DNA of 59,553 nucleotides from Clostridia bacterium (GCA_017436885.1 JAFSCG010000106.1:1-59553); one strand, 5' to 3'; positions 25,596 through 41,289 are shown, counted from the first letter of the stretch. The notes: a model not told the origin generated them from the letters alone. Numbers and translations are program-made.

Positions 25596-25706
25596 GGCAA
25601 TTTTACGGGAATATTATAGCATTTTATTTCGAATACATCAAGTACTTTCGGTAATATCATTTTCAAAGATCATTTGCTGTGTATAATGAAAACAGAGGTG
25701 ATCGTT

Positions 25707-27920
25707 ATGGAATACATCAAGGCTGCGGATTACGAATACGTAATAAATAAATATCACGATACGAAAAAGCCGTTTAACAGCTTTTTCAGATTCATCCGAA
25801 GAGACGATATCTTCTCTTCGGAAACGGGTATGGACGGTGATGAGATAAAAGCGCAACTATTGCGGCTCGATGCGGAGCGTGAGGGTGTTTCGCATTCGGT
25901 GAGAAAGGCCATGGGATTTGCCTTCGTTTTGGAAAACACGAGGATCTCCTGCGATAGCCGCGATAGGTTTCCCGCAATCAACGCCATAGATCGCCCCTTG
26001 GAGCAAGTCATGATCGCGCGTTGGCGGCGCGAGGTATTTGAAGAGCTGGTTCCCGACGCGGAAGCGAAAAGAAAGGCCTTGGGAAGCTCGGGCGCGGCGA
26101 ATATTTCTCCGGATTTCGACCACAGCGTTCCCGTGTGGGACAGGATACTTTCCCTCGGGTTCGCGGGGCTGCTTCGGGAGAGCGAGGAGGCGCGAGCGCG
26201 TTGTGAATGCACGCCCGAGCAGGAGGCCTTCTTTGATGGCGTGAAGATAACGTACGAGGCGATAGTAAGCTTTATCGGCAGGCTTGCCGCTTTGGCAGAG
26301 GCAACCGAGGGCTCTCAGCGTATGGCAGAGGCGTTAAAGCATATAGCTTACAATGCGCCGTCAACCTTTTACGAGGCCTTGCTTGTCAACTACGTTTATT
26401 TCATGCTCAGCGAACATATTGAGGGTCTGCAGGTACGTTCACTTTCCAATTTTGACAGGCATTTCAGGCATTTTTATGAGCGGGATATTGCGAACGGCAT
26501 CACCGAGGAAGAGATACGGACCGATCTTGCGTATTTCCTCCTTCAATTCACCGCTATAGGGAACTATTGGAACCAACCCGTATATCTCGGTGGTGAAAGA
26601 GCAGACGGTACAACGGAGATAAATCCTCTGTCGTATATTTTCCTCGACGTGTATGACAAAATGGGGATATACAACCCCAAAATACAGATAAAGGTGGCGG
26701 ACAGCACGCCAAAAAGCTTTCTTTGCCGTGCTCTTGACATGATACGTCGGGGAAACAGCAGTATCGTGTTCGTTTCCGATGCCACCATTCGTAAAGCGCT
26801 GATAAAAAATGCGGGAGCAACGGAGGAAGAAGCAAGGCTTTGCCACGTTAAGGGCTGTTACGAATACGGTATAGAGGGCGTATATTCGGGCGGCATGAAT
26901 TATCTTAACCTCCTCAAGCCCTTGGAATATGTCTTGCACGAGGGGCGCGACGGTATAACGGGTGCATTTGTCGGTGTGAAATGCCCTGCCGCAAAGGATT
27001 ACGATTCCTTTGAACAGCTTTACGACGAATACAAAAAACAGCTTTTGTACGTTATTGACACTACTATCGAAACCGTAAACGGTTTTGAGGAGTATCTCAG
27101 CTATATCAACCCGCAGTCGATGCTGTCCGCAACGTATCCCGACTGCCTGAAAAACGGGCGCGATGCCCTTGTAAACGGGGAAAGTAATCTTAGCGTGGGT
27201 TTTGTTGCATCTCTTGCAGATTCCCTTGCGATGATAAAGAAGTACGTTTTTGATCTGAAGCTTATCTCGCTTCCCGAGCTGGTCCGTATGCTCGATGCGG
27301 ATTTTGAGGGTAACGATGCGTTCCGACGCAGACTTCTTGCCGATCGGGATAAATACGGCAACAACAAGCCGCTCCCCGATGGAATAGCGGTTGATATCGT
27401 AGATTTTGTTGCCAAGCACGTAACGGGAAGGCCGAATGCAAGTGCACGCGGCCGCAAATGGAGCTGCGGATTCCACGTTGCGCGTATGTCCTACTCCCAA
27501 GGAACAAAAACTGCCGCTACACCGGACGGGCGACGTTTTGGAGAGGAGCTGTCCAAAAACTGCTCTGCGGTCATGGGGCAGAATCGCGAGGGTGCAACGG
27601 CTGCCATACTGTCCGCAACCAGGATAGACGCCTCCTCCTTCGCGGGTGATGCTTGTCTTGATATCGGATTGCTTCCCTCGACCGTAAGCGGCGAGGACGG
27701 CTTGCAGGCGATGTACGGCCTGCTGCGTACCTTCTGCCGCCGCGGAGGGCACGCTCTTCAGATCAACGTATTTAATTCCGATATGCTCCGCGATGCCCAA
27801 GCGCATCCCGATAAGTATCGCGATCTGCAGATCAGGGTATGCGGCTGGAACGTGCTTTGGAACAACATAAACAAAAAGGAACAGGACGGCTTTATCCGTC
27901 AGGCGGAGGCACTTGCTTGA
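25707..27920 (+). CDS. glycyl radical enzyme, compact (737 aa), PFL2/dehydratase-like, substrate unknown
   Basis: ATG at 25707 after AGAGGTGA. The C-terminal glycyl motif is QIRVCGWNV (Gly codon 27843-27845). The Cys loop is HVKGCYEYG (Cys codon 26856-26858, Glu two residues later). HALQINVFNSDMLRDAQAHPDKYRDL is typical of the GRE C-terminal domain. Confidence 0.85.
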   Translation: MEYIKAADYEYVINKYHDTKKPFNSFFRFIRRDDIFSSETGMDGDEIKAQLLRLDAEREGVSHSVRKAMGFAFVLENTRISCDSRDRFPAINAIDRPLEQVMIARWRREVFEELVPDAEAKRKALGSSGAANISPDFDHSVPVWDRILSLGFAGLLRESEEARARCECTPEQEAFFDGVKITYEAIVSFIGRLAALAEATEGSQRMAEALKHIAYNAPSTFYEALLVNYVYFMLSEHIEGLQVRSLSNFDRHFRHFYERDIANGITEEEIRTDLAYFLLQFTAIGNYWNQPVYLGGERADGTTEINPLSYIFLDVYDKMGIYNPKIQIKVADSTPKSFLCRALDMIRRGNSSIVFVSDATIRKALIKNAGATEEEARLCHVKGCYEYGIEGVYSGGMNYLNLLKPLEYVLHEGRDGITGAFVGVKCPAAKDYDSFEQLYDEYKKQLLYVIDTTIETVNGFEEYLSYINPQSMLSATYPDCLKNGRDALVNGESNLSVGFVASLADSLAMIKKYVFDLKLISLPELVRMLDADFEGNDAFRRRLLADRDKYGNNKPLPDGIAVDIVDFVAKHVTGRPNASARGRKWSCGFHVARMSYSQGTKTAATPDGRRFGEELSKNCSAVMGQNREGATAAILSATRIDASSFAGDACLDIGLLPSTVSGEDGLQAMYGLLRTFCRRGGHALQINVFNSDMLRDAQAHPDKYRDLQIRVCGWNVLWNNINKKEQDGFIRQAEALA

Positions 27921-27921
27921 T

Positions 27922-28860
27922 ATGCGTGGGGAAAAGGTGTTTTCAAATCGAATTTCAAGCCTTTTGTTGGCTCTGGCCGTCTGTGCTCTGTGGGGGTCTC
28001 TTTACCCATTCGTGAAGCTTGGATATGACGCCTTTAGCATAGACGGCGGAGACGTTCCGTCAATCATACTGTTTGCTGGCGTGCGCTTCGCTGTGTGCGG
28101 TGTTGCCATGGCGGTGTTGTTTTCGGCGGTGAAGGGAAGGCTCCTTGCACCAAAAAGGGAAGACGCGGCACCTGTTTTTACTGTTGCGCTGTTCTCCGTG
28201 ATCCTTCACTATCTTCTTACTTATATCGCGCTGGCGGTGGGCGAGGGCTCCAAAAGCGCAATAATCAAGCAGATCGGATTTCTCTTTTTGAGCTGTATGT
28301 CCTTTCTGTTTATAAAAAACGAGCGGTTTTCTTATAAAAAGCTTTTCTGCGGATGCTTGGGTTTTTCCGGCATAGTCGTTACAAGCATGGATGGCTCCGC
28401 GTTTTCCTTTGCCCTTGGGGACCTATTGCTGGTGCTTTCGTCCTTTTGTGCGGTCATAGGAACAGTAGCGACAAAAAAAGCGGTCAAGCGTACGGAGCCC
28501 TTGGTCCTCGTGGCTTATTCACAGCTTTTCGGAGGCGTTTTGCTTTTGCTCGCGGGGCTTGCCTTTGGCGGGAGGATTGCGCACGTCGACCTTGGCTCCG
28601 CTGTTGTTTTTGCATATATTTGCGTGGCTTCCATCTGTGCGTACGCTCTTTGGAACGTGCTGATAAAATACAATTCCGTTTCCAAGCTTTCAATGATAAA
28701 GTTTACGGAGCCGTTGTTTGCGGTCCTGTTTTCGGGGCTGTTGCTCCGCGAAAACATTTTGAAGTGGAATTATGCGGCGGCTATGATAATTATTTTTACG
28801 GTGATACTTTTGGATAACGGCTTTATACGCAAGCGTCGGGGAAAAGGTGGCTTTAAATGA
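27922..28860 (+). CDS. DMT-superfamily (EamA-type) transporter
   Basis: About 10 TM helices in two EamA-like halves. The ATG lies 2 nt after the GRE stop, and the gene's stop overlaps the activase start (ATGA). Confidence 0.8.
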   Translation: MRGEKVFSNRISSLLLALAVCALWGSLYPFVKLGYDAFSIDGGDVPSIILFAGVRFAVCGVAMAVLFSAVKGRLLAPKREDAAPVFTVALFSVILHYLLTYIALAVGEGSKSAIIKQIGFLFLSCMSFLFIKNERFSYKKLFCGCLGFSGIVVTSMDGSAFSFALGDLLLVLSSFCAVIGTVATKKAVKRTEPLVLVAYSQLFGGVLLLLAGLAFGGRIAHVDLGSAVVFAYICVASICAYALWNVLIKYNSVSKLSMIKFTEPLFAVLFSGLLLRENILKWNYAAAMIIIFTVILLDNGFIRKRRGKGGFK

Positions 28861-29747
28861 AAGCAACGATCTTTGAGATAAAGCGATTTGCCGTTCATGA
28901 CGGCGACGGTATTCGTACTACCGTGTTCTTCAAGGGCTGTTCGCTGAAATGCGTATGGTGCCATAATCCCGAGGGACTGGGCGCTTCTCCGCAGTTAGGC
29001 TACTACGAGCATAAATGCACAGGCTGCGGCGAATGTGCGGCCGTTTGCCCCGCGAATGCTCACCGCACAGAGAGCGGGATCCACGTTTTTGATAGGGAAA
29101 AATGTATCGCCTGCGGCAGGTGCGCCGTTGTATGCACCAATGGAGCGTTAAGCTTTTACGGTAAAGAGGTAACGGTGGAAGAGCTGCTTTCCCTGCTTCT
29201 TGAGGACAGAGAGTTTTACGAGGAGTCCGATGGCGGTGTTACGCTTTCGGGCGGAGAGTGCCTTATGCAGGCGGATTTTTGCGCAGAGCTGCTGAAACGC
29301 CTGAAGGAGCACGGTATCCACACCGCTGTTGATACCTGCGGCTTCGTTTCAAGGGAGACACTGGATCGGGTCATTCCGTTTACCGACGTGTTTTTATACG
29401 ACATAAAGGCCTATGACGAGGAAGTGCATAAAAAATGTACCGGTGTTTCCAATCGCAGGATCCTTGATAATCTTGCGTATCTTGATTCCGTCGGAAAATC
29501 TGTTGAGATACGTATTCCTTACGTTCCCGATCACAATGATGCGGAAATGAGGGACATTGCCCGTTTTGTTTCGACCCTTAAGAACGTTACGAAAATAAGG
29601 GTCCTTCCGTACCATGCATACGCCGGATCGAAATATCGTGCTTTGGATATGGAAAACACCCTTCCCGAAAGGCTTCCTTCTTCAACGGAGTTGGACGAGG
29701 CTAAGGCTATTATCCGCAAGCTCACGAGCATTCGAGTTCAGGACTGA
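28857..29747 (+). CDS. glycyl-radical enzyme activating protein (radical SAM with ferredoxin-like insert)
   Basis: CSLKCVWCHNPE provides the CX3CX2C motif. CTGCGECAAVCP and CIACGRCAVVC provide two auxiliary 4Fe-4S motifs. GGVTLSGGE is also present. Confidence 0.9.
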   Translation: MKATIFEIKRFAVHDGDGIRTTVFFKGCSLKCVWCHNPEGLGASPQLGYYEHKCTGCGECAAVCPANAHRTESGIHVFDREKCIACGRCAVVCTNGALSFYGKEVTVEELLSLLLEDREFYEESDGGVTLSGGECLMQADFCAELLKRLKEHGIHTAVDTCGFVSRETLDRVIPFTDVFLYDIKAYDEEVHKKCTGVSNRRILDNLAYLDSVGKSVEIRIPYVPDHNDAEMRDIARFVSTLKNVTKIRVLPYHAYAGSKYRALDMENTLPERLPSSTELDEAKAIIRKLTSIRVQD

Positions 29748-29816
29748 GGTATACTTACGGTTTTTTTGTGCTTACACAAGCTCAATAAAATAAAAAACAA
29801 AAAACAGGAGGAAAAA

Positions 29817-31343
29817 ATGAAAAAATTCACATTGTTCACGGCAATACTTTTGTGTTTGGCAATGCTTTTACCCGCCTGCGGCACACCGGCAACTCCCCCA
29901 TCGGAAACGGATGGCAGTTCTGCTGACGTTACCACCGAAGCCCCCGTTGTAACGGAATCCCCATATGATGAAAACGGTTTTTTGAAGGACGATCTTCCGG
30001 ACGAGCTTGATTTCAACGACCTTACGGTCAAGATTTTCATTGCGGATTATAACAAGGCGTACGCCGAGGATATGTATAGCGAGGGCTATAATACCGAGCG
30101 CCTTAACGATGCGATCTACGCTATGATCGTAAACGTAGAGGATCGCCTTAACGTTGATCTTGAATATACCATAGAGTCCTACGTTTGGGCCGATTACGAT
30201 AAGTTCCAAGGCAGCGTTAAAACACGCATCATGGCAAACGACGGATCTATGGATCTTATATTCAATAATCATAATGCCGCATACGATATGCTTGAGTACG
30301 AATACTACGTTGACCTTTCCGAAACCAAGTACATAAACGAGGACATGCCCTGGTATAACCAGAGCATTAAGGACAGTCTGCTTACCGATTACGTTCACTT
30401 CCTTGCAGGTGACTTTGCCCTTGCGAACGTAAAAAACACTTACGCAGTTTATTTTAACGCTGATATGTACAAGTCGCTGGGATATACCGAAAATATTTAC
30501 GACGTGGTTGACAGCGGCAAATGGACCATCGACAAGATGGAGGAGCTGATAAAGACTTGCTACTCCGATCTTAACGGAAACGATAAGGCAGATCCCGCAG
30601 ACCGCTTCGGTCTTACCTTCGGAGATACCAATAAGTATCTCGGATTCCTTCCCGCCTTTGACGTAAAGATATTTACAAGGACCAACGACGGCTACGATTT
30701 TACCTATGGAAACGAGCACGCACTTGACGTGGCAAACAGGCTTATTGCCCTTGTGAACACCAATGAGAATGTGCTTAAGGGTCAGGCAAACGGCAAGGAA
30801 GCCGACTTCCCGGATTGGATGATATCCTCCGGAGGCGGTAACAACGCAAGCAGAGTGTTCATTGAGGGACGCTCGCTGTTCTCCTGCGGACTTGTTGCAG
30901 ATGCACCCGCCATTATCAACGCCATAAATTTCGAGTACGGCCTTCTTCCTTATCCCAAGTGGAACGAGGAGCAGGAAAATTACCAAACGACCCTCCAGCG
31001 CAGCTGTAACGCTATGATCCCCGTTTGCTCCACCATAGAGGACGAGGCATCTGCCGTTCTTGAAGCATTGGCAAGCGAATCCCACAGAAATCTGATGCCC
31101 GAGTACTGCGAGGTCTCTCTCAAGACCCGTTATTCTCAGGATAGCGACGTAAGCCGAATGTTCGACCTTATCGCTCACAGCACGGTATACGATCCGGGTG
31201 AAATATACAACAACGGTACGCCCGGCGGATACATACGTTACGCCATTAACGTAAGGCTGGATTGGATGAGCCACATAGCCGCAAACCGAGATGCTCTTGT
31301 TAACAAGATGCAGGAAGTAGTTGATTTCTACAAGAATAAGTGA
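29817..31343 (+). CDS. large extracellular solute-binding lipoprotein (ABC SBP family 1-like), with no adjacent permease genes
   Basis: ATG at 29817 after AGGAGG. MKKFTLFTAILLCLAMLLPACG gives a signal peptide plus lipobox, followed by a TPATPPSETDGSSADVTTEAPVVTESP linker and about 460 aa resembling an SBP. Confidence 0.65.
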   Translation: MKKFTLFTAILLCLAMLLPACGTPATPPSETDGSSADVTTEAPVVTESPYDENGFLKDDLPDELDFNDLTVKIFIADYNKAYAEDMYSEGYNTERLNDAIYAMIVNVEDRLNVDLEYTIESYVWADYDKFQGSVKTRIMANDGSMDLIFNNHNAAYDMLEYEYYVDLSETKYINEDMPWYNQSIKDSLLTDYVHFLAGDFALANVKNTYAVYFNADMYKSLGYTENIYDVVDSGKWTIDKMEELIKTCYSDLNGNDKADPADRFGLTFGDTNKYLGFLPAFDVKIFTRTNDGYDFTYGNEHALDVANRLIALVNTNENVLKGQANGKEADFPDWMISSGGGNNASRVFIEGRSLFSCGLVADAPAIINAINFEYGLLPYPKWNEEQENYQTTLQRSCNAMIPVCSTIEDEASAVLEALASESHRNLMPEYCEVSLKTRYSQDSDVSRMFDLIAHSTVYDPGEIYNNGTPGGYIRYAINVRLDWMSHIAANRDALVNKMQEVVDFYKNK

Positions 31344-31449
31344 GTTGGTGTAAGTCGCGTCGGCGGTACTGCGCTGTCATACCGACGGACAAACGAGAGT
31401 ATATTATACAGTGCTTAAAAATGCACGTCAGATAACTTATAAATAACGC

Positions 31450-31660
31450 AAAAAGGTCGTTGAAGCTTACTTCTGCGGCCTTTTGCTTTTTGGAGCGTGT
31501 ATGGCGTTTTTCGATATGGTTTTGATAGGCGTGGGCTTGGCGGCGGACGCCTTTGCCGCCGCGGTGGTGCGCGGACTGCGCATCGGCAGGCTGAGGGCCG
31601 CATACCTTGCCTCCACGGCACTCACCTTTGCATTCTTTCAGGGGGCTATGACCCTTGCGG
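31450..31660. repeat. direct-repeat copy 2 (mntP upstream hairpin plus the first 160 nt of intact mntP)
   Basis: See 24547-24756. The coding part is near-identical and the upstream ~40 nt are more diverged. Confidence 0.85.
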
Positions 31661-32025
31661 GATATTATGCGGGGGAGCTTTTAGCCTCGGGACTTGAAAA
31701 ATGGTCGGGCATACTTGGGGCAATACTGCTGTTTTTTCTCGGCGGAAGGATGCTGTTTGCCGCCGAGGAGGAAGAGCCTTCTCTGCATCTTATATCTATG
31801 GGATTTGCCACAAGCGTGGATGCCTCCGTAGTTGGTATGGCGTTCTCCCTTCGCCCGTCGGTAAGTGTTTTTCACCTTTGTGCCGTTATCGCCGCAGTAA
31901 CTCTCGTCTTATCTCTTTTGGGCTTTGCTTTGGGTTGCGCCTTTGGCGGCCGCTTCCGCAAAACTGCAAGAATAGGCGGTGCATTGGTGCTTATTGCTAT
32001 GGGTGCACGGTTTTTGATCGGGTAA
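31501..32025 (+). CDS. mntP: manganese efflux pump MntP
   Basis: ORF trimmed to the ATG at 31501 (MAFFDMVLIGVGLAADAFAAAVVRG), after GGAG. It has the two DUF204 half-repeats with (D/S)xDAF/SVDA motifs and FLGGRML, as in MntP. Confidence 0.8.
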   Translation: MAFFDMVLIGVGLAADAFAAAVVRGLRIGRLRAAYLASTALTFAFFQGAMTLAGYYAGELLASGLEKWSGILGAILLFFLGGRMLFAAEEEEPSLHLISMGFATSVDASVVGMAFSLRPSVSVFHLCAVIAAVTLVLSLLGFALGCAFGGRFRKTARIGGALVLIAMGARFLIG

Positions 32026-32100
32026 TTTCTGTTACGTATTGCTTTTTTCGATAATTTGCGATAAAATAATTATATCTATATCCAAAAAAGTGGGTGCCTT

Positions 32101-33504
32101 ATGAATTTCTCCGATCTTTTGTTCCTGTACGCATTCCTGCCCCTGTGCCTCGGAGCGTATTTTATATCAAAAAATATCCGCTGGCGCAACGGTGTGTTGC
32201 TGGTATTCTCCCTTATTTTCTACGCTTGGGGCGATATCCGCTTCCTGCCGCTGTTGGTTTGCGTTGCGCTGGTAAATTACTGCGCCGCACTTCTCCTTCG
32301 CCGCTTCGGGGAGGGGAAGCGCTCCACAGCCGTCCTTGCCGTGGGCATAGTGTTTGATCTGGGGCTTCTCGGCGTATTTAAATACACGGGCTTCCTTTTC
32401 GAGAATATCAACGGGCTTTTCGGCACGTCCCTCGAGGCTCCCGAGCTGGGACTGCCCCTGGGCATCAGCTTCTATACCTTCCGTCTTATCTCCTATCTTC
32501 TTGACGTTCATTGGGAGAAGACCGAGCCCGAGCGCAATTTCGGACGCTTCCTTATGTACGTTTCTCTGTTCCCGTCAACCGTGGCGGGCCCCATCGTGCG
32601 CTACGCGGACGTGCGCGAAAGTCTTACAGAGCGCACCGCCACCCTGCACGACGTTGGCGAGGGTGCATCCCGCATTATCTGCGGACTTGCAAAAAAGGTA
32701 ATCATCGCGGATAGCCTTGCAAAGCTTACCGCCTCTCTTTTCGGCACCGACGTTGCCGCCGCATCCGTTGCCGCCTGCTGGATAGGCGCGGCAGTATACG
32801 CCCTGCAGATGTATTTCGATTTTTCCGGTTACAGCGACATGGCGGTGGGTCTTGCCCGTATGTTCGGCATTCCGTACCCCGAGAACTTCAATTATCCCTT
32901 CCTTTGCAAGACCATTGCGGAGTTCTGGCAGCGTTGGCACATGACTCTCGGCTCATTCTTCCGCGATTATCTGCTGTACGTTCCCATATTCGGCAGTCAG
33001 CGCAAGTATCTTGCCCTGTTCCTCGTTTGGTTTTCCACGGGTATCTGGCACGGTGCCGCATGGAACTACGTTATCTGGGGTCTGTTTTTCGGCGCGTTCA
33101 TCCTGCTTGAAACTCTCCTCGGCAAAAAGCGCATGAAAAAGATCCCCGTGCCCGTAAAGCATATCTACACCAAGCTTGTACTTATCATCGGCTTCGGCAT
33201 CTTCCGCTTTGAAAAAACGGACGAGCTTTTCGCCTTCCTCCGCGGTCTTGTGGGCGCAAACGGCGCACCCTTCTGGGAGGAAACGGTGCTCCACTCCCTT
33301 GCAAACAACTGCTTCCTGCTTGCGGCGGCGTTGCTGTTCTCCTTCCCCGTTATCCGCTTTATTAAGGAAAAGGCAGAAAATAGCCCCATCGGCGTTATTG
33401 CCTACGGCGGCGCAAGACTCGTTTTCTCCGTGCTCATTCTGCTTATCGTCAGCATCATGCTTGTCAATTCCACCGCAAATCCCTTCCTTTACGCCAACTT
33501 CTGA
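32101..33504 (+). CDS. MBOAT-family membrane O-acyltransferase (DltB/AlgI-like) with C-terminal FLYANF tail
   Basis: 467 aa and polytopic. FWQRWHMTLGSFFRDYLY contains the conserved MBOAT His region. The last residues are VNSTANPFLYANF-stop. Confidence 0.88.
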   Translation: MNFSDLLFLYAFLPLCLGAYFISKNIRWRNGVLLVFSLIFYAWGDIRFLPLLVCVALVNYCAALLLRRFGEGKRSTAVLAVGIVFDLGLLGVFKYTGFLFENINGLFGTSLEAPELGLPLGISFYTFRLISYLLDVHWEKTEPERNFGRFLMYVSLFPSTVAGPIVRYADVRESLTERTATLHDVGEGASRIICGLAKKVIIADSLAKLTASLFGTDVAAASVAACWIGAAVYALQMYFDFSGYSDMAVGLARMFGIPYPENFNYPFLCKTIAEFWQRWHMTLGSFFRDYLLYVPIFGSQRKYLALFLVWFSTGIWHGAAWNYVIWGLFFGAFILLETLLGKKRMKKIPVPVKHIYTKLVLIIGFGIFRFEKTDELFAFLRGLVGANGAPFWEETVLHSLANNCFLLAAALLFSFPVIRFIKEKAENSPIGVIAYGGARLVFSVLILLIVSIMLVNSTANPFLYANF

Positions 33505-33519
33505 TAAAAGGATAAAGCC

Positions 33520-35055
33520 ATGGCAAACAAAAAAGAACTGAACAATAAAATACCCGAGGGTCTTTCCAAGGAAAGGCTTGAAAGACGTCTCGACCTTGTG
33601 CGCGTAATATGCCTCGGCACGGTAATGGCCGTTGTAGGCATCGGTCTTCTGGTGCTGGAGCGTCCCACCGAGAGCCTTGCGGAAAAGCGCAAGCTGGCGG
33701 AAAAGCCCGCCTTCTCCCTTTCCGCGGTTCTGGACGGAAGCTATATGCGTCAAATGACAAAGTATTATACGGACACCGTGCCCTACCGCGACCTTCTCGT
33801 GGATCTGGGCGCCTCCGTTCCCGAATATCTCGGCGTGCGCGTCGACGGCGTTAAGATACACGGCGATATCCCTGTGGTGCCTCCCGTAGACGATAAGCCT
33901 CCCGTTATTACCGAGCCTCCCGTAACTACCGACGCACCCGTAACCACCGAGCCCGTAACCGAGCCTCCCGTTACCACGGAGCCTGTTACCACCGATACTC
34001 CCGTAACGGGCGAGCCCGTTATCACCGACCCCGTTACCGACCCCGTAACCGAGCCTGTAACCGAACCTCCAGTAACCGAACCTCCAGTAACCGAACCTCC
34101 CGTAACCGAACCCCCCGTTACGGAGCCTCCCGTTACCACCGCTCCTCCCGTAACCGAGGAGCTTCCCGACGTTAACGACATTCTCCGCGAAAACGGTATT
34201 ATAGTTCTCAATAAGCGCGCCATTATGCTTTATTACGGCTCATACGATGCTACCGCAAGGTACGCCGCATCCGTAAACGAGTATAAAAAGGCGTTGGGCG
34301 ACAAGGTAAACGTGTGGTCTATGATCACTCCCACGGCAGTTGCCTTCTACCTGCCCGATAAATACAGCGCGTACACAAACGACCAGAAGGGTCATATCGA
34401 ATACGCCGCCACCCTCCTTCAGGGAGCAACGGAGATCAACGCCTACGCCGCGCTCCTGCCCCACGTTAAGGAGAACATCTACACCCGCACCGACCATCAT
34501 TGGAGTACCCTTGGTGCTTATTATGCCACCGAGGCCTTCGCAAAGAAGGCGGGCGTGCCCTTTGCTCCTCTTTCCACTTACAAGAAGATCGAGCGCGAGG
34601 GATACGTTGGTACTATGTACGCCTTCACGGGCGATCAGGTGCTGAAGAACAATCCCGAGACCTTCGTTTACTACAAGCCCCAAAACGATTACAGCGTTGA
34701 GTATTTCGACAGAAATATGCAAAACGGCTTTGCAAGCTCGCTGTTCTTTGATTGGGTGGACACACCAAACTCCTATCTTGTTTTCATCGGAAGCGATGAT
34801 CGCGTGACCCACATAACTACCGACTGTAAAAACGGCAGAAGGCTGTTCGTTATCAAGGACAGCTACGGCAACGCCCTCGTGCCCTTCCTTACGGGCTCCT
34901 TCGAGGAGATCTGGGTGGTGGACTTCCGCTACTTCGAGCTTAACGCCGTTCAGTTTATGAAGGACCACGAGATAACCGACTTTATGGTATCTATGTGCGC
35001 ATTCTTCTCCTGCGGCACGGGCGTTGGATATCTGGAATCTATGAGAACGAAATAA
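33520..35055 (+). CDS. DHHW-family protein (extracytoplasmic AlgX/AlgJ/DltD-analogous acyltransferase) with PVTEP-repeat linker
   Basis: An N-terminal TM helix (VICLGTVMAVVGIGLLVL), about 95 aa of (P)VT(E/D)P repeats, and the RTDHHWSTLGAYYA motif. Confidence 0.85.
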   Translation: MANKKELNNKIPEGLSKERLERRLDLVRVICLGTVMAVVGIGLLVLERPTESLAEKRKLAEKPAFSLSAVLDGSYMRQMTKYYTDTVPYRDLLVDLGASVPEYLGVRVDGVKIHGDIPVVPPVDDKPPVITEPPVTTDAPVTTEPVTEPPVTTEPVTTDTPVTGEPVITDPVTDPVTEPVTEPPVTEPPVTEPPVTEPPVTEPPVTTAPPVTEELPDVNDILRENGIIVLNKRAIMLYYGSYDATARYAASVNEYKKALGDKVNVWSMITPTAVAFYLPDKYSAYTNDQKGHIEYAATLLQGATEINAYAALLPHVKENIYTRTDHHWSTLGAYYATEAFAKKAGVPFAPLSTYKKIEREGYVGTMYAFTGDQVLKNNPETFVYYKPQNDYSVEYFDRNMQNGFASSLFFDWVDTPNSYLVFIGSDDRVTHITTDCKNGRRLFVIKDSYGNALVPFLTGSFEEIWVVDFRYFELNAVQFMKDHEITDFMVSMCAFFSCGTGVGYLESMRTK

Positions 35056-35064
35056 GGTGAAGAT

Positions 35065-36861
35065 ATGTTAAAAGAGCTTACCTACCCCTTTGATGCGGAA
35101 TATATTTTGCAAAACCGCCGCAAGCTGAAAAAGACCCTTGCAAATGACGGTACGTCCCGCGTTAAAAAGCGCATTGCCATTCTCGGCGGGGCCACCACGG
35201 GCATCATCCGTCCCGTTTTGGAGATATTCCTCCTTGATAAGGGCATCGAGCCCGAGTTTTACGAATCCGAATACAACCGTTTTTGGCAGGACGGAATGTT
35301 CGGCACACCCGAGCTTGACGAGTTCAGACCCGAGATCGTGTTTATCCACACGGGCGTGCGCAATCTGAATATGCCCGCACCCACCGATACCGCCGAGAGC
35401 GCCGAGGCGCTCCTCGAAAGTGAGTATGCCCGCTACGCCGCCCTTTGGCAGGCGCTGGGCGCAAGGTATAACTGCGTTATTATTCAAAACAATTTCCAGC
35501 CACCCGCATATCGCTTGCTGGGTAATCTGGACGGCACCGACCGCCGCGGCAGGGTGAACTTCGTTAACCGTATGAACCTGCGCTTTGCCGACTATGCGGC
35601 GGCAAACCGCGGCTTCTATATTCACGATATTGCGTACCTTTCCTCTGTTTGCGGTCTTGATAATTGGGACAGTCCCGAGGAATGGTATATGTACAAGCAA
35701 AGTCCCGCAACGGCCTGCGTGCCTATGCTGTGCCACAGCGTTGCAAACATAGTTAAGGCCATTGGCGGTAAGAACAAAAAGGTGCTGACCCTCGATCTTG
35801 ACAACACCCTTTGGGGCGGCGTTGTGGGCGATGTGGGACAGCAGGGGCTTGACCTTGGAGAGGAAACTCCCGTGGGTCAGGCGTACCGCGAGTTCCAGCA
35901 TTACGTAAAAGAGGTCTCCCAAACGGGTATAGTGCTTACCGTTGCCTCCAAAAACGACGAGGAAAACGCGCTGGACGGTCTCCGTCACCCCGACGGATAT
36001 CTGCATCCCGAGGATTTTGCCGTTATCAAGGCAAATTGGGATCGCAAGGACGGAAACATCCTGCAGACCGTGGCAAGCCTTGACCTGCTTCCCGACAGCG
36101 TTGTGTTTGCCGACGATAACCCTGCCGAGCGGCATATAGTTCACGAGAACGTTGCGGGCGCCGCAGTCCCGGAGATGACAAGTCCGGAAAGCTACATCCG
36201 CACCGTTGACCGCGGCGGATATTTTGAGCCCCTCTCTCTTTCGGGGGAGGATCTCAAGCGTAACGAAATGTACCGCGAGAACGCAAAGCGTGCCGAGCTC
36301 TCCCTTTCCTTTGCCGATTACGGCGAGTACTTAAAGAGCCTTGATATGGTTGCGGCCGTTGGCGATTTCCCCGATATTTACCTCAAGCGTATCGCTCAGC
36401 TTGCCAACAAGAGCAATCAGTTCAACCTCACCACCCGCCGCTATACGGAAACCGAGATAGAGGAAATTGCAAAAAGCGGCGAATATATCCGCCTCTGCGG
36501 TAAGCTTGCCGACCGCTTCGGCGATAACGGCGTGGTTTCCGTTATCATAGCAAAAAAGAATGGCGACGAAGCTGATATTCTGCTGTGGATAATGAGCTGC
36601 AGAGTGCTTAAGCGCGGTATGGAGCAGCTGATGCGCAATTGCCTGCTGGAGGCTGCAAGGGACGCAGGCGTCAAGACCTTGCGAGGGTACTATTACCCCA
36701 CCCAAAAGAACGGTATGGTGCGTAACCTTCTCGGAGACCTCGGCTTCGAAAAGATAAGCGAGGACGCAGAGGGAAATACCGAGTGGACTATATCCACGGA
36801 CGCATCTCCCCTTGAGTGTTTTATCGAAAAAACGGATCACCCCGAAAACGAAAGGAAATAA
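35065..36861 (+). CDS. HAD-IIIC / FkbH-like domain protein (candidate ACP-loading enzyme)
   Basis: HAD motifs LTLDLDNTLWGGV, VASKNDEENA and ADDNPAERH. The C-terminal GNAT-like block is NQFNLTTRRY...IMSCRVLKRGMEQ. An extra N-terminal domain of about 230 aa is present. Confidence 0.8.
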   Translation: MLKELTYPFDAEYILQNRRKLKKTLANDGTSRVKKRIAILGGATTGIIRPVLEIFLLDKGIEPEFYESEYNRFWQDGMFGTPELDEFRPEIVFIHTGVRNLNMPAPTDTAESAEALLESEYARYAALWQALGARYNCVIIQNNFQPPAYRLLGNLDGTDRRGRVNFVNRMNLRFADYAAANRGFYIHDIAYLSSVCGLDNWDSPEEWYMYKQSPATACVPMLCHSVANIVKAIGGKNKKVLTLDLDNTLWGGVVGDVGQQGLDLGEETPVGQAYREFQHYVKEVSQTGIVLTVASKNDEENALDGLRHPDGYLHPEDFAVIKANWDRKDGNILQTVASLDLLPDSVVFADDNPAERHIVHENVAGAAVPEMTSPESYIRTVDRGGYFEPLSLSGEDLKRNEMYRENAKRAELSLSFADYGEYLKSLDMVAAVGDFPDIYLKRIAQLANKSNQFNLTTRRYTETEIEEIAKSGEYIRLCGKLADRFGDNGVVSVIIAKKNGDEADILLWIMSCRVLKRGMEQLMRNCLLEAARDAGVKTLRGYYYPTQKNGMVRNLLGDLGFEKISEDAEGNTEWTISTDASPLECFIEKTDHPENERK

Positions 36862-36864
36862 AAA

Positions 36865-37107
36865 ATGACCGCAGAAAACGTATACGTTGAGCTTAATTCC
36901 ATCTTCACCGATATTTTCGACGAGGATATAACCCTGTTCCCCGAGACCACCGCAAAGGATATCGACGGCTGGGACAGCCTTGAGCACATCAACATCATCC
37001 ACGCAGTTGAGAAGCGCTTTAAAATGAAGTTTAAAATGGGCGAGATATCTACCATGAAGTGCGTAGGCGAAATGGTGGAGATTATATTGGCAAGAACGGC
37101 ACTCTGA
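36865..37107 (+). CDS. acyl carrier protein (DltC-like stand-alone carrier)
   Basis: 80 aa and acidic, with the phosphopantetheinylation site DIDGWDSLEHINII. The start is 3 nt after the FkbH-like stop. Confidence 0.85.
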   Translation: MTAENVYVELNSIFTDIFDEDITLFPETTAKDIDGWDSLEHINIIHAVEKRFKMKFKMGEISTMKCVGEMVEIILARTAL

Positions 37108-37440
37108 CCGCGCTGTAAAAAATCGCTTTATACTTCAGATACTGCAACAGGGCCGAATTCGGCGTACGCCAAGTACGCCGTCATCCGGCCCTATTTTGTA
37201 TCTTCGTCAAAGCGATTTTTTGTATGTCGGGGTGGTTAGTTGAGTGAGGCGGGCGACGCACGCTAAGTACGCCTTCGGTTTGCTTTTGAGCTTTTTTCTT
37301 CGTCTAAAGCGATTTTTTGTTTGTCGAGGTGGTTAGTTGAGTGAAGCGGGCGGCGTACGCCAAGTACTCCTTCGGTTTGTAGCCTTCCTCTCCGAGGAAG
37401 GGGGACCGCGAAGCGGTGGAAGGAGTTTTTTCGGTTAATG
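37108..37440. repeat. hairpin-repeat array: one family-B long hairpin (37117-37221), two ~95-bp tandem units, and a partial family-A element (37381-37432)
   Basis: AAAAATCGCTTTATACTTCAGATA...TCTTCGTCAAAGCGATTTTTT. The unit TGTCG(G/A)GGTGGTTAGTTGAGTGA(G/A)GCGGGCG..ACGC.AAGTAC.CCTTCGGTTTG occurs twice. CCTTCCTC-tccg-AGGAAGG and GACCGC-gaa-GCGGT are also present. Confidence 0.8.
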
Positions 37441-37515
37441 GTCATATGAAAAGTGAACAAAATGTAAAATATGCGTCAAAGGTGCGTTTTTGGCGTTTTT
37501 CATTTGCCGTTTTGC

Positions 37516-37544
37516 TTGCAATCATCACATAAATGTGCTACAAT
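37516..37544 (+). promoter_or_regulatory. extended -10 promoter of dxs (TTGCAA-17 nt-TGcTACAAT)
   Basis: TTGCAA at 37516-37521, TG at 37536-37537 and TACAAT at 37539-37544. Confidence 0.55.
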
Positions 37545-37591
37545 TATCAAAACTAAACTCGGGTACTGCGCCCGATAGATGGGAGGGTAAT

Positions 37592-39463
37592 ATGTCTGAC
37601 GGAAGATATCCGCTTTTAAATCAAATAAACTCTCCCGCCGATCTTAAGCGTATGGATGCTTCTCTTATGCCGGCTCTTGCAAAGGAGATACGCTCCTTTT
37701 TGGTAGAAAAGGTCACGGTAAGCGGCGGACATCTTGCATCCAATTTGGGCGTTGTGGAGCTTTCCATTGCTCTCCATCGCGTTTTCGACACGCCGAAGGA
37801 CCATATAATCTTCGACGTTGGTCACCAAAGCTACGTGCACAAGCTGCTTACGGGCCGCCGCGACGAATTCGACAAGCTTCGCAAGCCCGGAGGACTTTCG
37901 GGCTTTACCCGCAGAGGCGAGAGCGAGCACGACGCCTTCGGTGCAGGGCACAGCTCCACCGCCATTTCCGCTGCCGTCGGCTTTGCGGAGGGCGACCGTA
38001 TAGAGGGCAGGGACGCCTTCAGCGTTGCCGTTGTTGGTGACGGAGCCTTCACGGGCGGTATGGTCCACGAGGCGCTGAACAACTGCCGCGGCGATCTTAA
38101 GCTGATAGTAGTGCTTAACGAAAACGAGATGAGCATTTCCAAAAACACGGGAGCATTTGCAAACCACATTGCAAAGATACGCTCATCTCCCAGATATATG
38201 AACACAAAAAGCCGCACCGGAGATATTCTTTCCAAGTTACCCGTAGTGGGCGAACCTATGTACGCCGCAATGCGCGATACGAAAAAGTTTTTCAAAAACA
38301 TTCTCTTCTCCTCCAATTATTTTGAGGAGTTGGGACTTTTCTATCTCGGTCCTGCCGACGGCAACGATTATTTTGCCGTGGAACGGCTTTTGCGCGCCGC
38401 CAAGGAAAAGGGCGAGAGCGTTATTCTGCATCTGAAGACTGTAAAGGGCAAGGGCTATGCTCCTGCAGAGCTGAATCCCCGTGACTACCACGGCGTATCC
38501 CCCAAGGGCACGCCCTCGGTGCGCAACTTTTCTGCCGAGATGGGCGCGTGGCTTGCAAAAGAGGCGGAGCGCGACGGCCGTATTTGTGCCATTACCGCAT
38601 CAATGGCTCATTCCACGGGCCTTTCCCCCTTCCAGAAAAAGTTCCCTCAGCGCTTTTTTGACGTGGGAATTGCGGAGGAGCACGCCGCAACCTTTGCCGC
38701 AGGTCTTGCCGCCCAAGGCAGAAAGCCCTTCTTTGCGGTCTATTCCTCCTTCCTGCAGCGCTCCTATGACAGTATAGTGCACGATATTGCCCTGCAGGGA
38801 CTTGGTGTTGTGCTGTGCGTTGACCGCGCGGGTCTTGCGGCCTCCGACGGACCCACACATCACGGAATACTTGACGTTGCTTTCCTTTCCCAAATGTGCG
38901 GAGTAAGCATTTTTGCTCCCGTTACCTTCCCGTCCCTTCGCCGTGCCATGAAGGCCGCTCTTGACTGTGCCGGCCCTTGCGCTGTGCGATATTCCAATTG
39001 CGGTGAGGTTGACGTAAGCGGATTTACCGCCACGGAGCATCCTATGATAAGCGTTCGCGGCGTGGATGGATGCGATGCCCTTATCATTACCTACGGCAAG
39101 GTAGTAAGCGAGGCAATTGCCGCTGCAGACGCTCTTGCCGGCGAGGGAATTAAAACCGGCATTATCCTTATGGAGCAGATAGCCCCTATGGAGGATATGA
39201 GCGCATATATAGCAAAATTGATACCCGGTACCTGCGGCAAGGTCATCTTCCTTGAGGAGGGTGTACGCAGCGGCGGTGCCGGAATGCTGCTGCTTGACAG
39301 ACTCGGACGCAAGCATCCCCTTGCCCTTTCCGGCAAGAGCGCAACCATCCTTGCCATCGACGATTGCTTCGTCCGCGGCAAGCTTGGGGAGAGCATATAC
39401 GAAACTGCGGGCATTTCCCGCAAGCATTTGATTGCCGAGGCAAAGAGTCCTTCGGCTGATTGA
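37592..39463 (+). CDS. dxs: 1-deoxy-D-xylulose-5-phosphate synthase
   Basis: ORF trimmed to the ATG at 37592, after GGGAGGG. GGHLASNLGVVELSIALH, DVGHQSYVHKLLTGR and GDGAFTGGM (ThDP motif) are present. Confidence 0.95.
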   Translation: MSDGRYPLLNQINSPADLKRMDASLMPALAKEIRSFLVEKVTVSGGHLASNLGVVELSIALHRVFDTPKDHIIFDVGHQSYVHKLLTGRRDEFDKLRKPGGLSGFTRRGESEHDAFGAGHSSTAISAAVGFAEGDRIEGRDAFSVAVVGDGAFTGGMVHEALNNCRGDLKLIVVLNENEMSISKNTGAFANHIAKIRSSPRYMNTKSRTGDILSKLPVVGEPMYAAMRDTKKFFKNILFSSNYFEELGLFYLGPADGNDYFAVERLLRAAKEKGESVILHLKTVKGKGYAPAELNPRDYHGVSPKGTPSVRNFSAEMGAWLAKEAERDGRICAITASMAHSTGLSPFQKKFPQRFFDVGIAEEHAATFAAGLAAQGRKPFFAVYSSFLQRSYDSIVHDIALQGLGVVLCVDRAGLAASDGPTHHGILDVAFLSQMCGVSIFAPVTFPSLRRAMKAALDCAGPCAVRYSNCGEVDVSGFTATEHPMISVRGVDGCDALIITYGKVVSEAIAAADALAGEGIKTGIILMEQIAPMEDMSAYIAKLIPGTCGKVIFLEEGVRSGGAGMLLLDRLGRKHPLALSGKSATILAIDDCFVRGKLGESIYETAGISRKHLIAEAKSPSAD

Positions 39464-39475
39464 TCAGGAGTTAAG

Positions 39476-40465
39476 ATGTTCGGTAAAAAGAGAAAAAAAC
39501 AAATAGCCGCACCGCCCAGCCGCGGCGTTTTTATCGACTCGCTGTACGCTGTGACACCGGAGGAGCTGGGTGCCCATAAGAAAAAGAAGGTAAAAAAGCG
39601 CCTTATAAGCGGTCTTTCCGATATTATTCTTTTGGGTTGCATCGTGGTGTTCGTAATTTGCGCCATTTCTCTTATCGGCGGTGCTATCGACGCAGAGATA
39701 GCAAGCGATATATACGGCGATCTTTCCGAGGGCCTTTTTGAAGCGGAGGACGGAGATTATTACGGCTTTGCCTCCCTGCAAAAGGAGCAGCCTACTCCTA
39801 CTCTTTATTGCGTTACCGAGCTGCTGCGCCTTGGAATTTCGGGCGAGGTAAGCACAAACGCCACCACGGGCGGCTATAACGTGCAGATCGAGCGAATAAA
39901 GAGCCGCCTGAGAGAGATGAAGGCTCAAAACCCCGATATTTACGGTTACATCAGAATAGAGGATACCAACATAAGCTATCCGTTCGTTCTTGGAGAGGAT
40001 AACGAGTTTTATCTTGTTCACGACCCCGTCAATCGCGGATATCTGGACAGCGGCTCCATTTTTGCCGATTACAGATGCAGCCGCCTTGGTGTGGAGTATA
40101 ACAGAAATACCGTGCTCTACGGCCACAATATGACACGCGGTACTATGTTTGCGGAGCTGATAAATTACAATGACGAGGAGTTTTTCCGCACCCACAACGT
40201 ATATGTTTACACGGAAACGGGTCTTTACATCTATCAGCCCTTTGCGTTTTTCAAGACTAACGAGAGGCATCAGTACTTCCGAGTTATATTCTTAAGCGAC
40301 GATGATTACGTAGGCTTCCTTGAAGAGATGAAGAGCTGCTCAATATTTGAAACGGACGTTACCTTCACCCCTGCGGATAAGGTAATAACCCTTTCTACCT
40401 GCACGAACATCGTTTCCTCCGGTCGTTACTGCCTGCAGGCAAAGCTGATAAAGGTGGAGAACTGA
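39476..40465 (+). CDS. srtB: class B sortase
   Basis: An N-terminal TM anchor, the catalytic-His context LYGHNM, the catalytic-Cys context ITLSTCTN, and AGGAG upstream. Confidence 0.85.
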   Translation: MFGKKRKKQIAAPPSRGVFIDSLYAVTPEELGAHKKKKVKKRLISGLSDIILLGCIVVFVICAISLIGGAIDAEIASDIYGDLSEGLFEAEDGDYYGFASLQKEQPTPTLYCVTELLRLGISGEVSTNATTGGYNVQIERIKSRLREMKAQNPDIYGYIRIEDTNISYPFVLGEDNEFYLVHDPVNRGYLDSGSIFADYRCSRLGVEYNRNTVLYGHNMTRGTMFAELINYNDEEFFRTHNVYVYTETGLYIYQPFAFFKTNERHQYFRVIFLSDDDYVGFLEEMKSCSIFETDVTFTPADKVITLSTCTNIVSSGRYCLQAKLIKVEN

Positions 40466-41289
40466 TGAACTGCAAAGGACTTATATGCCCCGTGTGCGGT
40501 TCGCCCCTTTCCGTTGCGGAAAACGGGAGAGGCTTCAGATGCGGCGGGGTAAAGATGCATAATTTTGATATCTCCCGCAGCGGACACGTTAATTTTGCCG
40601 GAGGAGGGTACGATCCCAACAGCGGTGACCCCGTGGATATGGTTCGAGCGCGCATTGCCTTTCTGGAGGAAGGGTGGTTCGAGCCCCTTGCCCGTTGCAT
40701 TGGGGAAACAGTGGGAGCCTTGGGTGGCCTTTGCGTTGACGCGGGTTGCGGTAACGGATACTATACGGAATGGGCAGCTGAGAGAGCGGAGACGGTATAC
40801 GCCTTTGACCTTTCCAAGTACGCGGTGGAGTACGGAGCAAAAAAAGCAAAAAGAGAGGGCAAAAGCTGTCTCTATGCCGTTTCCTCCGTTTACGGTCTGC
40901 CTCTTGCATCCGGATGTGCGGATACGGTGCTTTCCGTATTTGCGCCCGTGGCGGAGGAGGAATTCTGCCGTGTGCTGAAGGACGGCGGACGGCTTATCAT
41001 TGCCGCAGCAGCACCCGACCATCTCCGCGAGCTTAAGGCACAGCTTTACGAAAGCGTTACGGAGAATACCGAGCGGGGCGATCTGCCGAAGACCATGAAG
41101 CTGATCGAAAAAAACAGGGTAAGCTACACCCGCACCCTACATAGCGGTGCAATTGCCGCACTTTACGGAATGACGCCTTACAGCCGACGTACCTCAAGGG
41201 AGGCTGCGGAAAGGCTTTTGGGGCTTGAAGGCTTGGAAATAACTTTTTCATTTGATATATACGTATACGGAAAGAAGGAGCAGGTATGA
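40465..41289 (+). CDS. SAM-dependent methyltransferase with N-terminal zinc ribbon (RlmA/RrmA-like)
   Basis: CPVCGSPL...FRCGG forms the Zn ribbon and VDAGCGNGYY is SAM motif I. The start forms an ATGA overlap with the srtB stop. Confidence 0.7.
   Translation: MNCKGLICPVCGSPLSVAENGRGFRCGGVKMHNFDISRSGHVNFAGGGYDPNSGDPVDMVRARIAFLEEGWFEPLARCIGETVGALGGLCVDAGCGNGYYTEWAAERAETVYAFDLSKYAVEYGAKKAKREGKSCLYAVSSVYGLPLASGCADTVLSVFAPVAEEEFCRVLKDGGRLIIAAAAPDHLRELKAQLYESVTENTERGDLPKTMKLIEKNRVSYTRTLHSGAIAALYGMTPYSRRTSREAAERLLGLEGLEITFSFDIYVYGKKEQV

Follow-up and report, generated by a model that had tools for sequence, protein, structure and literature searches.

Acyl decorations of wall polymers, D-alanine and acetyl among them, govern surface charge, autolysin activity, resistance to lysozyme and antimicrobial peptides, and immune recognition. 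The bacterial systems that combine an MBOAT membrane protein with an SGNH-type transferase are described as split in two: Dlt uses a carrier protein together with a separate DltX, while all others use acyl-CoA and a fused tail and have no carrier (PMC12148441). In the non-Dlt bacterial MBOATs the FxYxxF hexapeptide is fused C-terminally, where two additional transmembrane helices carry it (Anderson, Schultz et al., JBC 2025, PMC12148441). A tyrosine acyl relay has been shown for both DltX/DltB/DltD and PatA/PatB: PatA, whose tail in Neisseria reads FIYANF, auto-acetylates its tail Tyr from acetyl-CoA, and the acetylated FIYANF peptide donates to PatB (PMC12148441). The relay logic itself is already established. 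In a different setting, FkbH-like enzymes and standalone acyl carrier proteins (ACPs) have been assigned to the production of glyceryl-ACP out of 1,3-bisphosphoglycerate (PMC7489565). Here we describe a module of four genes, encoding an MBOAT, a DHHW protein, an FkbH-like protein and an ACP, at positions 32101-37107 of a 59,553-nucleotide stretch of DNA from Clostridia bacterium (GCA_017436885.1 JAFSCG010000106.1:1-59553); this whole stretch is called the window in the following. The module breaks the split between Dlt and non-Dlt systems, since a fused tail occurs in it together with a carrier of its own and a loader that does not adenylate.

All four genes are located on the plus strand, to which all module coordinates given below refer. 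The MBOAT gene (32101-33504, 467 aa, C-terminus ...VNSTANPFLYANF) is followed by the DHHW gene (33520-35055, 511 aa), the FkbH-like gene (35065-36861, 598 aa) and the ACP gene (36865-37107, 80 aa). According to the open reading frame (ORF) listing the intergenic gaps are 15, 9 and 3 nt, so that gene sizes, direction and spacing are as given in the original prediction; such short gaps suggest co-transcription of the four genes. The sequence motifs quoted there (RTDHHWS, DLDNTLWGG, SKNDE, DDNPAER, SCRVLKRG and GWDSLEH) were all found again, and the family assignments of all four proteins hold, three of them with scores above the cutoff of the respective model (PF03062, PF14286, TIGR01686) and the ACP through a profile match to 2LML. 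Catalytic motifs are intact in all four proteins: His317 and Tyr464 of the MBOAT, the Asp/His pair, the Ser and the DxRY Arg of the DHHW protein, DxDxT, SKN, DDxP and SCRV of the FkbH-like protein, and Ser38 of the ACP. Reading these sequence features together, we consider it fairly probable that the four genes form one operon for the post-synthetic O-acylation of an extracytoplasmic glycopolymer by a carrier-fed MBOAT-SGNH relay.

The start of the MBOAT gene leaves just 75 nt of upstream spacer, and there is no separate gene for a DltX microprotein, the FxYxxF motif being carried by the MBOAT. The AMP-binding family, i.e. the adenylating D-alanine ligase of the DltA type, gave no match among the four genes or their immediate neighbors. 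A dehydrogenase or methyltransferase of the methoxymalonyl route is absent from the four-gene unit, as are polyketide synthase (PKS), ketosynthase (KS) and tailoring genes. Promoter and terminator scans of 31300-37600 returned counts equal to the shuffled expectation and were uninformative.

The linkage of these genes was assessed in other genomes. In a forward test an alignment of FkbH proteins was scanned against the GTDB species-representative genomes (one per species). At least 600 stretches matched, and at least 585 of them encode a relative; the 80 best distinct loci were retained, and their ORFs were searched with the window proteins. The ACP adjoins FkbH in 72 of the 77 loci with enough downstream sequence. 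An MBOAT is located at a distance of at most 8 kb from FkbH in 63 of the 80 loci, and in 29 of 36 where at least 5 kb of flank were available on both sides. For a genome of ~3 Mb with a few MBOAT genes, we estimate the chance of finding one in a 16-kb stretch at ~1-3%. The four families are associated far beyond chance, as the original prediction requires.

Three arrangements could be distinguished. Type A (36 loci, Oscillospirales) shows the order MBOAT, one to three DHHW genes, FkbH and ACP, as in the window. Type B (23 loci, most of them in Lachnospiraceae, with Eisenbergiella tayi DSM 26961 among the carriers) comprises FkbH, ACP and an MBOAT from a different clade, in surroundings that include GT2, DUF6056, YdjC and a GDSL-family lipoprotein. 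Type C, represented by 4 of the 80 genome loci and two metagenome loci, L001 and L002 (altogether L001, L002, L011, L012, L017 and L018), has FkbH directly before an MBOAT of a third clade, with genes for an anchored protein of 363 aa, DUF6077 and a protein of 254 aa alongside. When plasmids were searched by tblastn, a further instance appeared on pSymB of the proteobacterium Sinorhizobium meliloti (L167, CP140934.1 1032913-1037948), where an MBOAT of 522 aa ending in FLYQGF, an anchored protein of 409 aa, an 83-aa ACP with a WDSL motif and an FkbH-like gene (628 aa) are found together, ~5 kb from RkpR and capsule-export genes. The linkage persists although genes are rearranged and partners exchanged: MBOATs from three clades take part in it, the putative outer partners are of three kinds, gene order varies, and two phyla are represented.

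The outer partners in type C and in S. meliloti differ from the DHHW protein of the window. For the 363-aa protein no family was found in Pfam, NCBIfam and PDB sequence searches, and for the 409-aa protein none was found in Pfam. The latter is annotated as a 'TonB-dependent receptor', which is likely a misannotation. Both are distant homologues of each other (by pairwise BLASTP only, E 4e-9), and a G-(G/S)-S and a D-x-x-H motif align between them, which is suggestive of SGNH/DltD-like enzymes.

We then considered the four proteins individually. The FkbH-like protein scored 247.9 bits against TIGR01686 over residues 238-562 (cutoff 146.65), and its N-terminus reached 31.8 bits against FkbH_N, PF21211 (cutoff 27). 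Its N-terminal domain of ~235 aa (PF21211) is weakly similar to GDSL proteins; a phosphatase domain of the HAD-IIIC type and a C-terminal domain of GNAT fold follow. Residues 18-392 match PDB 3SLR at 1.5e-43 with ~28% identity, and the AlphaFold2 (AF2) model (pLDDT 84.6) gave the same picture in Foldseek, with 3SLR matched for residues up to ~390 and GNATs for the C-terminal domain (TM ~0.7 to RimI, PAT and SpeG). 3SLR is the N-terminal and phosphatase part of BF1531 from B. fragilis, a structure solved without an assigned function. HAD motif I, DLDNTLWGG with Asp244 and Asp246, is encoded at 35794..35820 (aa 244-252), and SKNDE and DDNPAER follow at aa 295-299 and 350-356. The SCRVLKRG motif at 36595..36618 (aa 511-518) is located in the GNAT-fold domain and contains the invariant Cys512, presumably the acyl-thioester site by comparison with OzmB/FkbH. 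DLDNT, SKN, DDNP, KSNQFN and SCRV (Cys512) are invariant in 40 FkbH orthologues and conserved in a homologue encoded on a B. thuringiensis plasmid. The gene order around this homologue is hybrid non-ribosomal peptide synthetase (NRPS)/PKS, flavin oxidoreductase, ABC exporter, FkbH homologue, NRPS, hydrolase, NRPS, and we take it to be ZmaN of the zwittermicin cluster. ZmaN has demonstrated glyceryl-ACP synthase activity. By analogy, we propose that the FkbH-like protein of the window is an acyl-ACP synthase loading the ACP encoded next to it.

The 80-aa protein itself had no match to PF00550 at E <= 0.01, and the NCBIfam ACP models reached 16-28 bits against cutoffs of 66-84. A profile built from this protein and nine orthologues matched 2LML (3e-24), followed by many ACPs of the AcpP type; no DltC was present among the best 60 of the 70 matches. 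2LML is a solved 'putative acyl carrier protein' without an assigned function. The GWDSLEH motif is located at aa 35-41, and its Ser38 (in WDSLEH) is invariant in 10 orthologues from types A and B.

The MBOAT scored 91.5 bits against PF03062 (cutoff 27). Its AF2 model, built with 40 orthologues, had a pLDDT of 83.9 and a pTM of 0.85, and in Foldseek its top match was DltB 6BUG (E 8e-12, TM 0.64-0.71), followed by PORCN, HHAT and LPCAT3. DltB is the best match both in sequence and in fold. Against the DltB equivalog model TIGR04091 the protein reached 162.6 bits, below the cutoff of 375, and it is therefore not a DltB orthologue; it is an MBOAT of the AlgI/PatA type, which we propose would carry the acyl group across the membrane. 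The WHGAAWN motif at 33046..33066, which contains the conserved MBOAT His317, aligns with the WHG motif of DltB, and this His is invariant in the 40 orthologues as well as in 73 more distant relatives.

At the extreme C-terminus the hexapeptide FLYANF (33484..33501) represents the FxYxxF acyl-shuttle motif with Tyr464. The tail residues F462, Y464 and F467 are invariant in the same 40 orthologues and 73 distant relatives, and the complete MBOATs of the loci L001-L086 all end in a motif of the FxYxxF type save two variants. K/R-rich loops at residues 21-30, 67-75, 341-349 and 414-428 predict an N-out, C-out orientation. The C-terminal helices 394-412, 417-425 and 429-456, which are additional to the DltB core, are modelled with confidence; the last of these, 429-456, is followed by the uncharged tail. 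The tail is thus predicted to be on the extracytoplasmic side, and the C-terminal Tyr is not predicted to be cytoplasmic, in line with its proposed role as outer relay in the original prediction. The DltX-like tail that had been emphasized there is present, but it is not distinctive: published work gives such a tail as the rule among non-Dlt bacterial MBOATs (PMC12148441), and the related MBOATs without FkbH or ACP also carry it wherever their C-terminus is readable. Since these relatives share the tail, it is uninformative about this module specifically. The novelty is the FkbH-plus-ACP feed and not the fused tail.

Two positions set the MBOATs of type A apart. In the FWQRWH motif at 32923..32940 the window protein has Gln277 where relatives without FkbH have Arg: position 277 is Gln in 34/34 type A proteins and Arg in 64/73 relatives without FkbH, while DltB has Asn. 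At position 138 (32509-32514 in the window) a Trp is fixed in type A (34/34), and 57/73 relatives without FkbH have Arg. Judged from the alignment, R138W and R277Q may represent a donor-site change in the MBOATs of type A. A universal signature of ACP use was considered and rejected, as the type B and C MBOATs found beside FkbH mostly keep Arg (or Lys) at these sites, and for this reason Gln277 is a clade marker only.

For the DHHW protein 183.5 bits were obtained against PF14286 (cutoff 25). It matches PDB 4NZK at 2e-72 and B. cereus PatB1 at 4e-11, and a weak ALGX match was seen in addition (PF16822, E 1.3e-4). 4NZK is EUBSIR_00411 of E. siraeum, 94% identical to the first DHHW gene of L015, a locus of the order DHHW-DHHW-FkbH-ACP. 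The protein has a single N-terminal membrane anchor (33613..33657), which is its sole hydrophobic segment (aa 29-47) and is preceded by eight K/R residues, so that an N-in, C-out topology is predicted. A linker of PVTEP repeats rich in Pro, Thr, Val and Glu follows at 33865..34164 (~100 aa with 29 P, 23 T, 20 V and 13 E), and its DNA consists of imperfect 15-nt tandem repeats at 33896-34157. The single anchor, the long linker and the predicted outward orientation agree with the earlier description of this protein, and the length of the Pro/Thr stalk suggests that the protein extends into the wall. The RTDHHWS motif at 34486..34506 (aa 323-329) corresponds to block V, with the Asp and His of the catalytic triad, and aligns with TDHHW of PatB1 and 4NZK. 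KDSYGNA at 34855..34875, with the putative nucleophilic Ser448, aligns with KDSFANA of PatB1, and DFRYF at 34921..34935, the block II DxRY motif with the oxyanion-hole Arg, aligns with DLRHY. In PatB1 the KDSFANA segment holds the catalytic Ser, and the DxRY motif has been described as well (PMC9487903). BcPatB1, a wall-polysaccharide O-acetyltransferase whose motif blocks supply the triad and the oxyanion elements, is the only characterised DHHW enzyme (PMC9487903). From these alignments the DHHW protein of the module appears as a putative SGNH-type extracytoplasmic acyltransferase.

A mechanism in three steps can be proposed for the module. First, the cytoplasmic FkbH-like enzyme would accept an acyl donor with three carbons and a phosphate, as judged from family membership most likely 1,3-bisphosphoglycerate; its HAD domain would strip the phosphate, and Cys512 would hold the acyl group and pass it to the phosphopantetheine arm of the ACP, the likely product being glyceryl-S-ACP. 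The acyl-ACP would then dock on the cytoplasmic face of the MBOAT, as conserved synteny and the analogy to DltC-DltB suggest, and His317 would catalyse transfer through the MBOAT to Tyr464 of the FLYANF tail on the outer face. In the last step the membrane-anchored DHHW protein on its Pro/Thr-rich stalk would take the acyl group onto its catalytic Ser, in the manner of PatA-PatB and DltX-DltD, and pass it on to a polymer of the wall or surface, at one of its hydroxyls. By analogy the group transferred would probably be a glyceroyl (2,3-dihydroxypropanoyl) ester or a closely related group. We infer that the MBOAT takes acyl-ACP as its donor and that a surface glycopolymer receives the group. 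Support for a glycopolymer comes from loci other than the one in the window, as their neighbors include polysaccharide and capsule genes (GT2, GtrA, an aminotransferase, DUF6056, YdjC and capsule export genes). Taken as a whole, this would constitute a second carrier-fed MBOAT relay, independent of Dlt, widespread among gut Clostridia and also found in rhizobia, in which a glycerate ester is made on surface glycopolymers from 1,3-bisphosphoglycerate without ATP-dependent adenylation and a fused-Tyr MBOAT of the AlgI/PatA type can use acyl-ACP in place of acyl-CoA. We put this full proposal forward tentatively, as a possibility somewhat short of an even chance.

Several observations weigh against such a relay. 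The seven tail residues of the MBOAT are modelled at a pLDDT <50, so that the topology of the tail rests on the positive-inside rule and on homology. A sequence signature shared by all FkbH-linked MBOATs was not found, R277Q and R138W being fixed in type A only. In type C no ACP is present within 8 kb by an unfiltered profile search of all stop-to-stop segments of at least 30 aa, a search by which a hidden ACP in these loci was rejected. At least three loci (L015, L058, L066) show the order DHHW-DHHW-FkbH-ACP with no MBOAT in ~5 kb upstream; in three more loci of this order the flank is too short to judge MBOAT absence. MBOAT-DHHW pairs commonly occur without FkbH-ACP, and FkbH-ACP occurs alone among housekeeping genes (phosphofructokinase, dnaX, ybaB, recR) in L030 and L034; as each pair is found on its own, the two halves of the module are separable. 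The FkbH-like protein shares just 26% identity with the homologue from the zwittermicin cluster, which leaves the identity of the substrate not secure. Finally, no obvious polymer-synthesis genes adjoin the module in the window, where the flanks are housekeeping. The loci without an adjacent MBOAT and the type C loci without an ACP may have these partners encoded elsewhere or may reflect real mechanistic variation. The order DHHW-DHHW-FkbH-ACP is also seen in L003 and L004, and upstream of it in L003 there are a serC-like and a serA-like gene, encoding enzymes of 3-phosphoglycerate metabolism.

The low identity to the PKS-associated homologue would be compatible with the same relay transferring an acyl group other than glycerate, either another small hydroxy-acyl or phospho-acyl group or a glyceryl-ACP modified, ahead of the transfer, by an enzyme that is encoded elsewhere. 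The N-terminal domain of the FkbH-like protein, which has no assigned role, fits this view, and so does TIGR01686 itself, which is a broad 'subfamily_domain' model. In contrast, the HAD phosphatase motifs and the SCRV Cys are all invariant, and the operon is without the tailoring genes that could alter the product. To our knowledge every FkbH-type enzyme characterised so far uses 1,3-bisphosphoglycerate. The published assignment of this family to glyceryl-ACP formation points in the same direction (PMC7489565). We regard a different acyl group as unlikely, though it deserves to be kept in view.

The linkage was also examined by a reverse test, in which 80 metagenomic loci with MBOAT relatives at 35-52% identity were inspected. 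A DHHW neighbor was present in 55 of the 80 and FkbH-ACP in only one, the closest of all (52% identity); among the 42 loci with at least 4 kb of downstream sequence DHHW was found in 34 and FkbH in one. This marks FkbH-ACP as something that one clade has added to an otherwise common MBOAT-DHHW chassis, and not as a generic neighbor. It could be argued from this that the module consists of two independent units, with the MBOAT-DHHW pair acting as an O-acetyltransferase that uses acetyl-CoA, like PatA1/PatB1 and CcsH/CcsI, and FkbH-ACP making glyceryl-ACP for an unrelated lipid, a glycolipid anchor or a small metabolite. Close MBOAT-DHHW relatives nearly all lack FkbH-ACP while keeping the same tail, FkbH-ACP pairs stand alone among housekeeping genes, and the type B and C MBOATs mostly retain the Arg typical of relatives without FkbH. 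However, the short gaps suggest co-transcription, and in 63 of 80 species an MBOAT is at most 8 kb away from FkbH. With three MBOAT clades, several gene orders and two phyla involved, the association is hard to explain without a functional link. Moreover, no KS, FabH-like or PKS consumer of glyceryl-ACP was present in the window or in the six loci checked with Pfam (L001, L030, L034, L079, L167, L168). Two unconnected units are in our judgement distinctly improbable.

Instead of a glycopolymer, a membrane lipid, a lipoprotein or a secreted protein might receive the acyl group. In favor of this, one could cite the genes flanking the module in the window, which are housekeeping rather than polysaccharide genes, and the eukaryotic MBOATs among the fold matches, which acylate lipids and proteins. 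Such an acceptor appears very unlikely in view of the characterised DHHW member, which acetylates wall polysaccharide (PMC9487903), of the type B, type C and S. meliloti loci placed among GT2, GtrA, DUF6056, YdjC and capsule-export genes, and of the long Pro/Thr stalk with its suggested reach into the wall.

The genes that surround the module encode MntP, a lipoprotein, Dxs, a sortase, an RlmA-like methyltransferase, a GT2, a phosphopantetheinyl transferase (PPTase) and a GH3-dockerin protein. The MntP manganese-efflux gene (31483-32025) is located directly upstream of the module. MntP is also found near the module in L005 and L006, there on the opposite strand (2288-2848 in L005), and its proximity in all three places may be residual synteny. 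Further upstream, at 25674-29747, genes for a PFL-like glycyl-radical enzyme of 748 aa, an EamA transporter and a radical-SAM activase follow each other in series, and behind this row a 525-aa lipoprotein without a Pfam family is encoded at 29766-31343.

Downstream, the RlmA-like methyltransferase, the 243-aa GT2 and the PPTase, which is of the Sfp type, are packed together at 40465-42540. The ORFs of methyltransferase and GT2 overlap by 4 nt. Between GT2 and PPTase the overlap is 26 nt with the TTG start and 8 nt with the ATG start of the latter, and this packing suggests that the three genes are co-transcribed. The PPTase had been named in the original prediction as a potential source of holo-ACP. 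It is a real gene on the plus strand, extending over 41992-42540 with the TTG start or from 42010 with the ATG start (PF01648 32.6 bits against a cutoff of 25; PF17837 23.2 bits), but its link to the module is weak because no homologue is present within 8 kb in 86 related loci. On the same grounds it was rejected as a component of the module; as an activator of the module ACP it is a possible candidate. At 42617-46447 the window encodes a GH3 protein of 1276 aa with a permuted arrangement, the GH3 C-terminal domain preceding the N-terminal domain, and a C-terminal type I dockerin, which suggests an organism with cellulosome-type scaffolds.

Hundreds of species in the Oscillospiraceae, Ruminococcaceae and Lachnospiraceae carry the module; these taxa dominate in gut and rumen, and their wall polymers have hardly been characterised. 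Should glycerate be the acyl group, Gram-positive surfaces would carry a new neutral, diol-bearing ester with a direct tie to glycolytic flux. Structures without an assigned function have been solved for relatives of three out of the four module proteins (3SLR, 4NZK, 2LML), and cultured or genetically tractable carriers include S. meliloti with pSymB, Eisenbergiella tayi DSM 26961 and [Eubacterium] siraeum. With such carriers and structures at hand the hypothesis is directly testable. The literature did not offer a characterised pathway of this composition, as the original prediction had supposed; full-text searches, extending to papers other than the DltX paper of Schultz et al. 2023, Nature Microbiology (PMC10664464), turned up none that connects an MBOAT of the cell envelope with FkbH or HAD-IIIC.

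Compared with known systems, the module would follow the logic of Dlt, the pathway for D-alanylation of teichoic acids, in which a carrier thioester is the cytoplasmic donor of the MBOAT, a Tyr of the FxYxxF motif serves as shuttle and an anchored SGNH-type protein performs the final transfer (PMC12148441). It differs in its loader, an FkbH protein of HAD-GNAT composition in place of a DltA-type adenylating enzyme, in the position of the motif, which is on the MBOAT itself and not on a DltX microprotein, in its carrier, which matches ACPs with no DltC among the matches listed, and in its outer enzyme, which is a DHHW protein and not DltD. The module would work like Dlt as a carrier-fed relay; it fails every feature of Dlt membership, having neither DltA nor DltX nor an orthologue of DltB, DltC or DltD.

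With PatA/PatB of Gram-negative peptidoglycan, PatA1/PatB1 of the secondary cell wall polysaccharide of B. cereus and the Clostridial CcsH/CcsI it shares the fused FxYxxF tail and the separate SGNH-type transferase, and PatB1 and CcsI belong to the DHHW family like the transferase of the module (PMC9487903, PMC7710045). These systems use acetyl-CoA and are stated to work without a carrier protein (PMC12148441), whereas the module has its own ACP and loader in the operon, and the MBOATs of the type A clade carry R138W and R277Q relative to relatives without FkbH. The alginate system AlgI/AlgJ/AlgF/AlgX and the cellulose system WssH/WssI are similar in combining an MBOAT with a periplasmic SGNH-like transferase (AlgX/AlgJ); they differ in being part of polymer-synthesis operons, in transferring acetyl and in having no ACP or FkbH. 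Finally, FkbH/FkbJ, ZmaN/ZmaD and the tetronate 'glycerate-utilisation operon' (e.g. Mad7/Mad8) resemble the second half of the module, with FkbH beside a discrete ACP and with the HAD motifs and the SCRV Cys kept (PMC7489565). There a PKS or a FabH-like enzyme of secondary metabolism takes up the product, whereas here the conserved neighbors are an MBOAT and an extracytoplasmic transferase. Structurally, the module is an MBOAT-DHHW pair of the PatA/PatB1 type that has acquired an FkbH-ACP cassette otherwise known from polyketide pathways.

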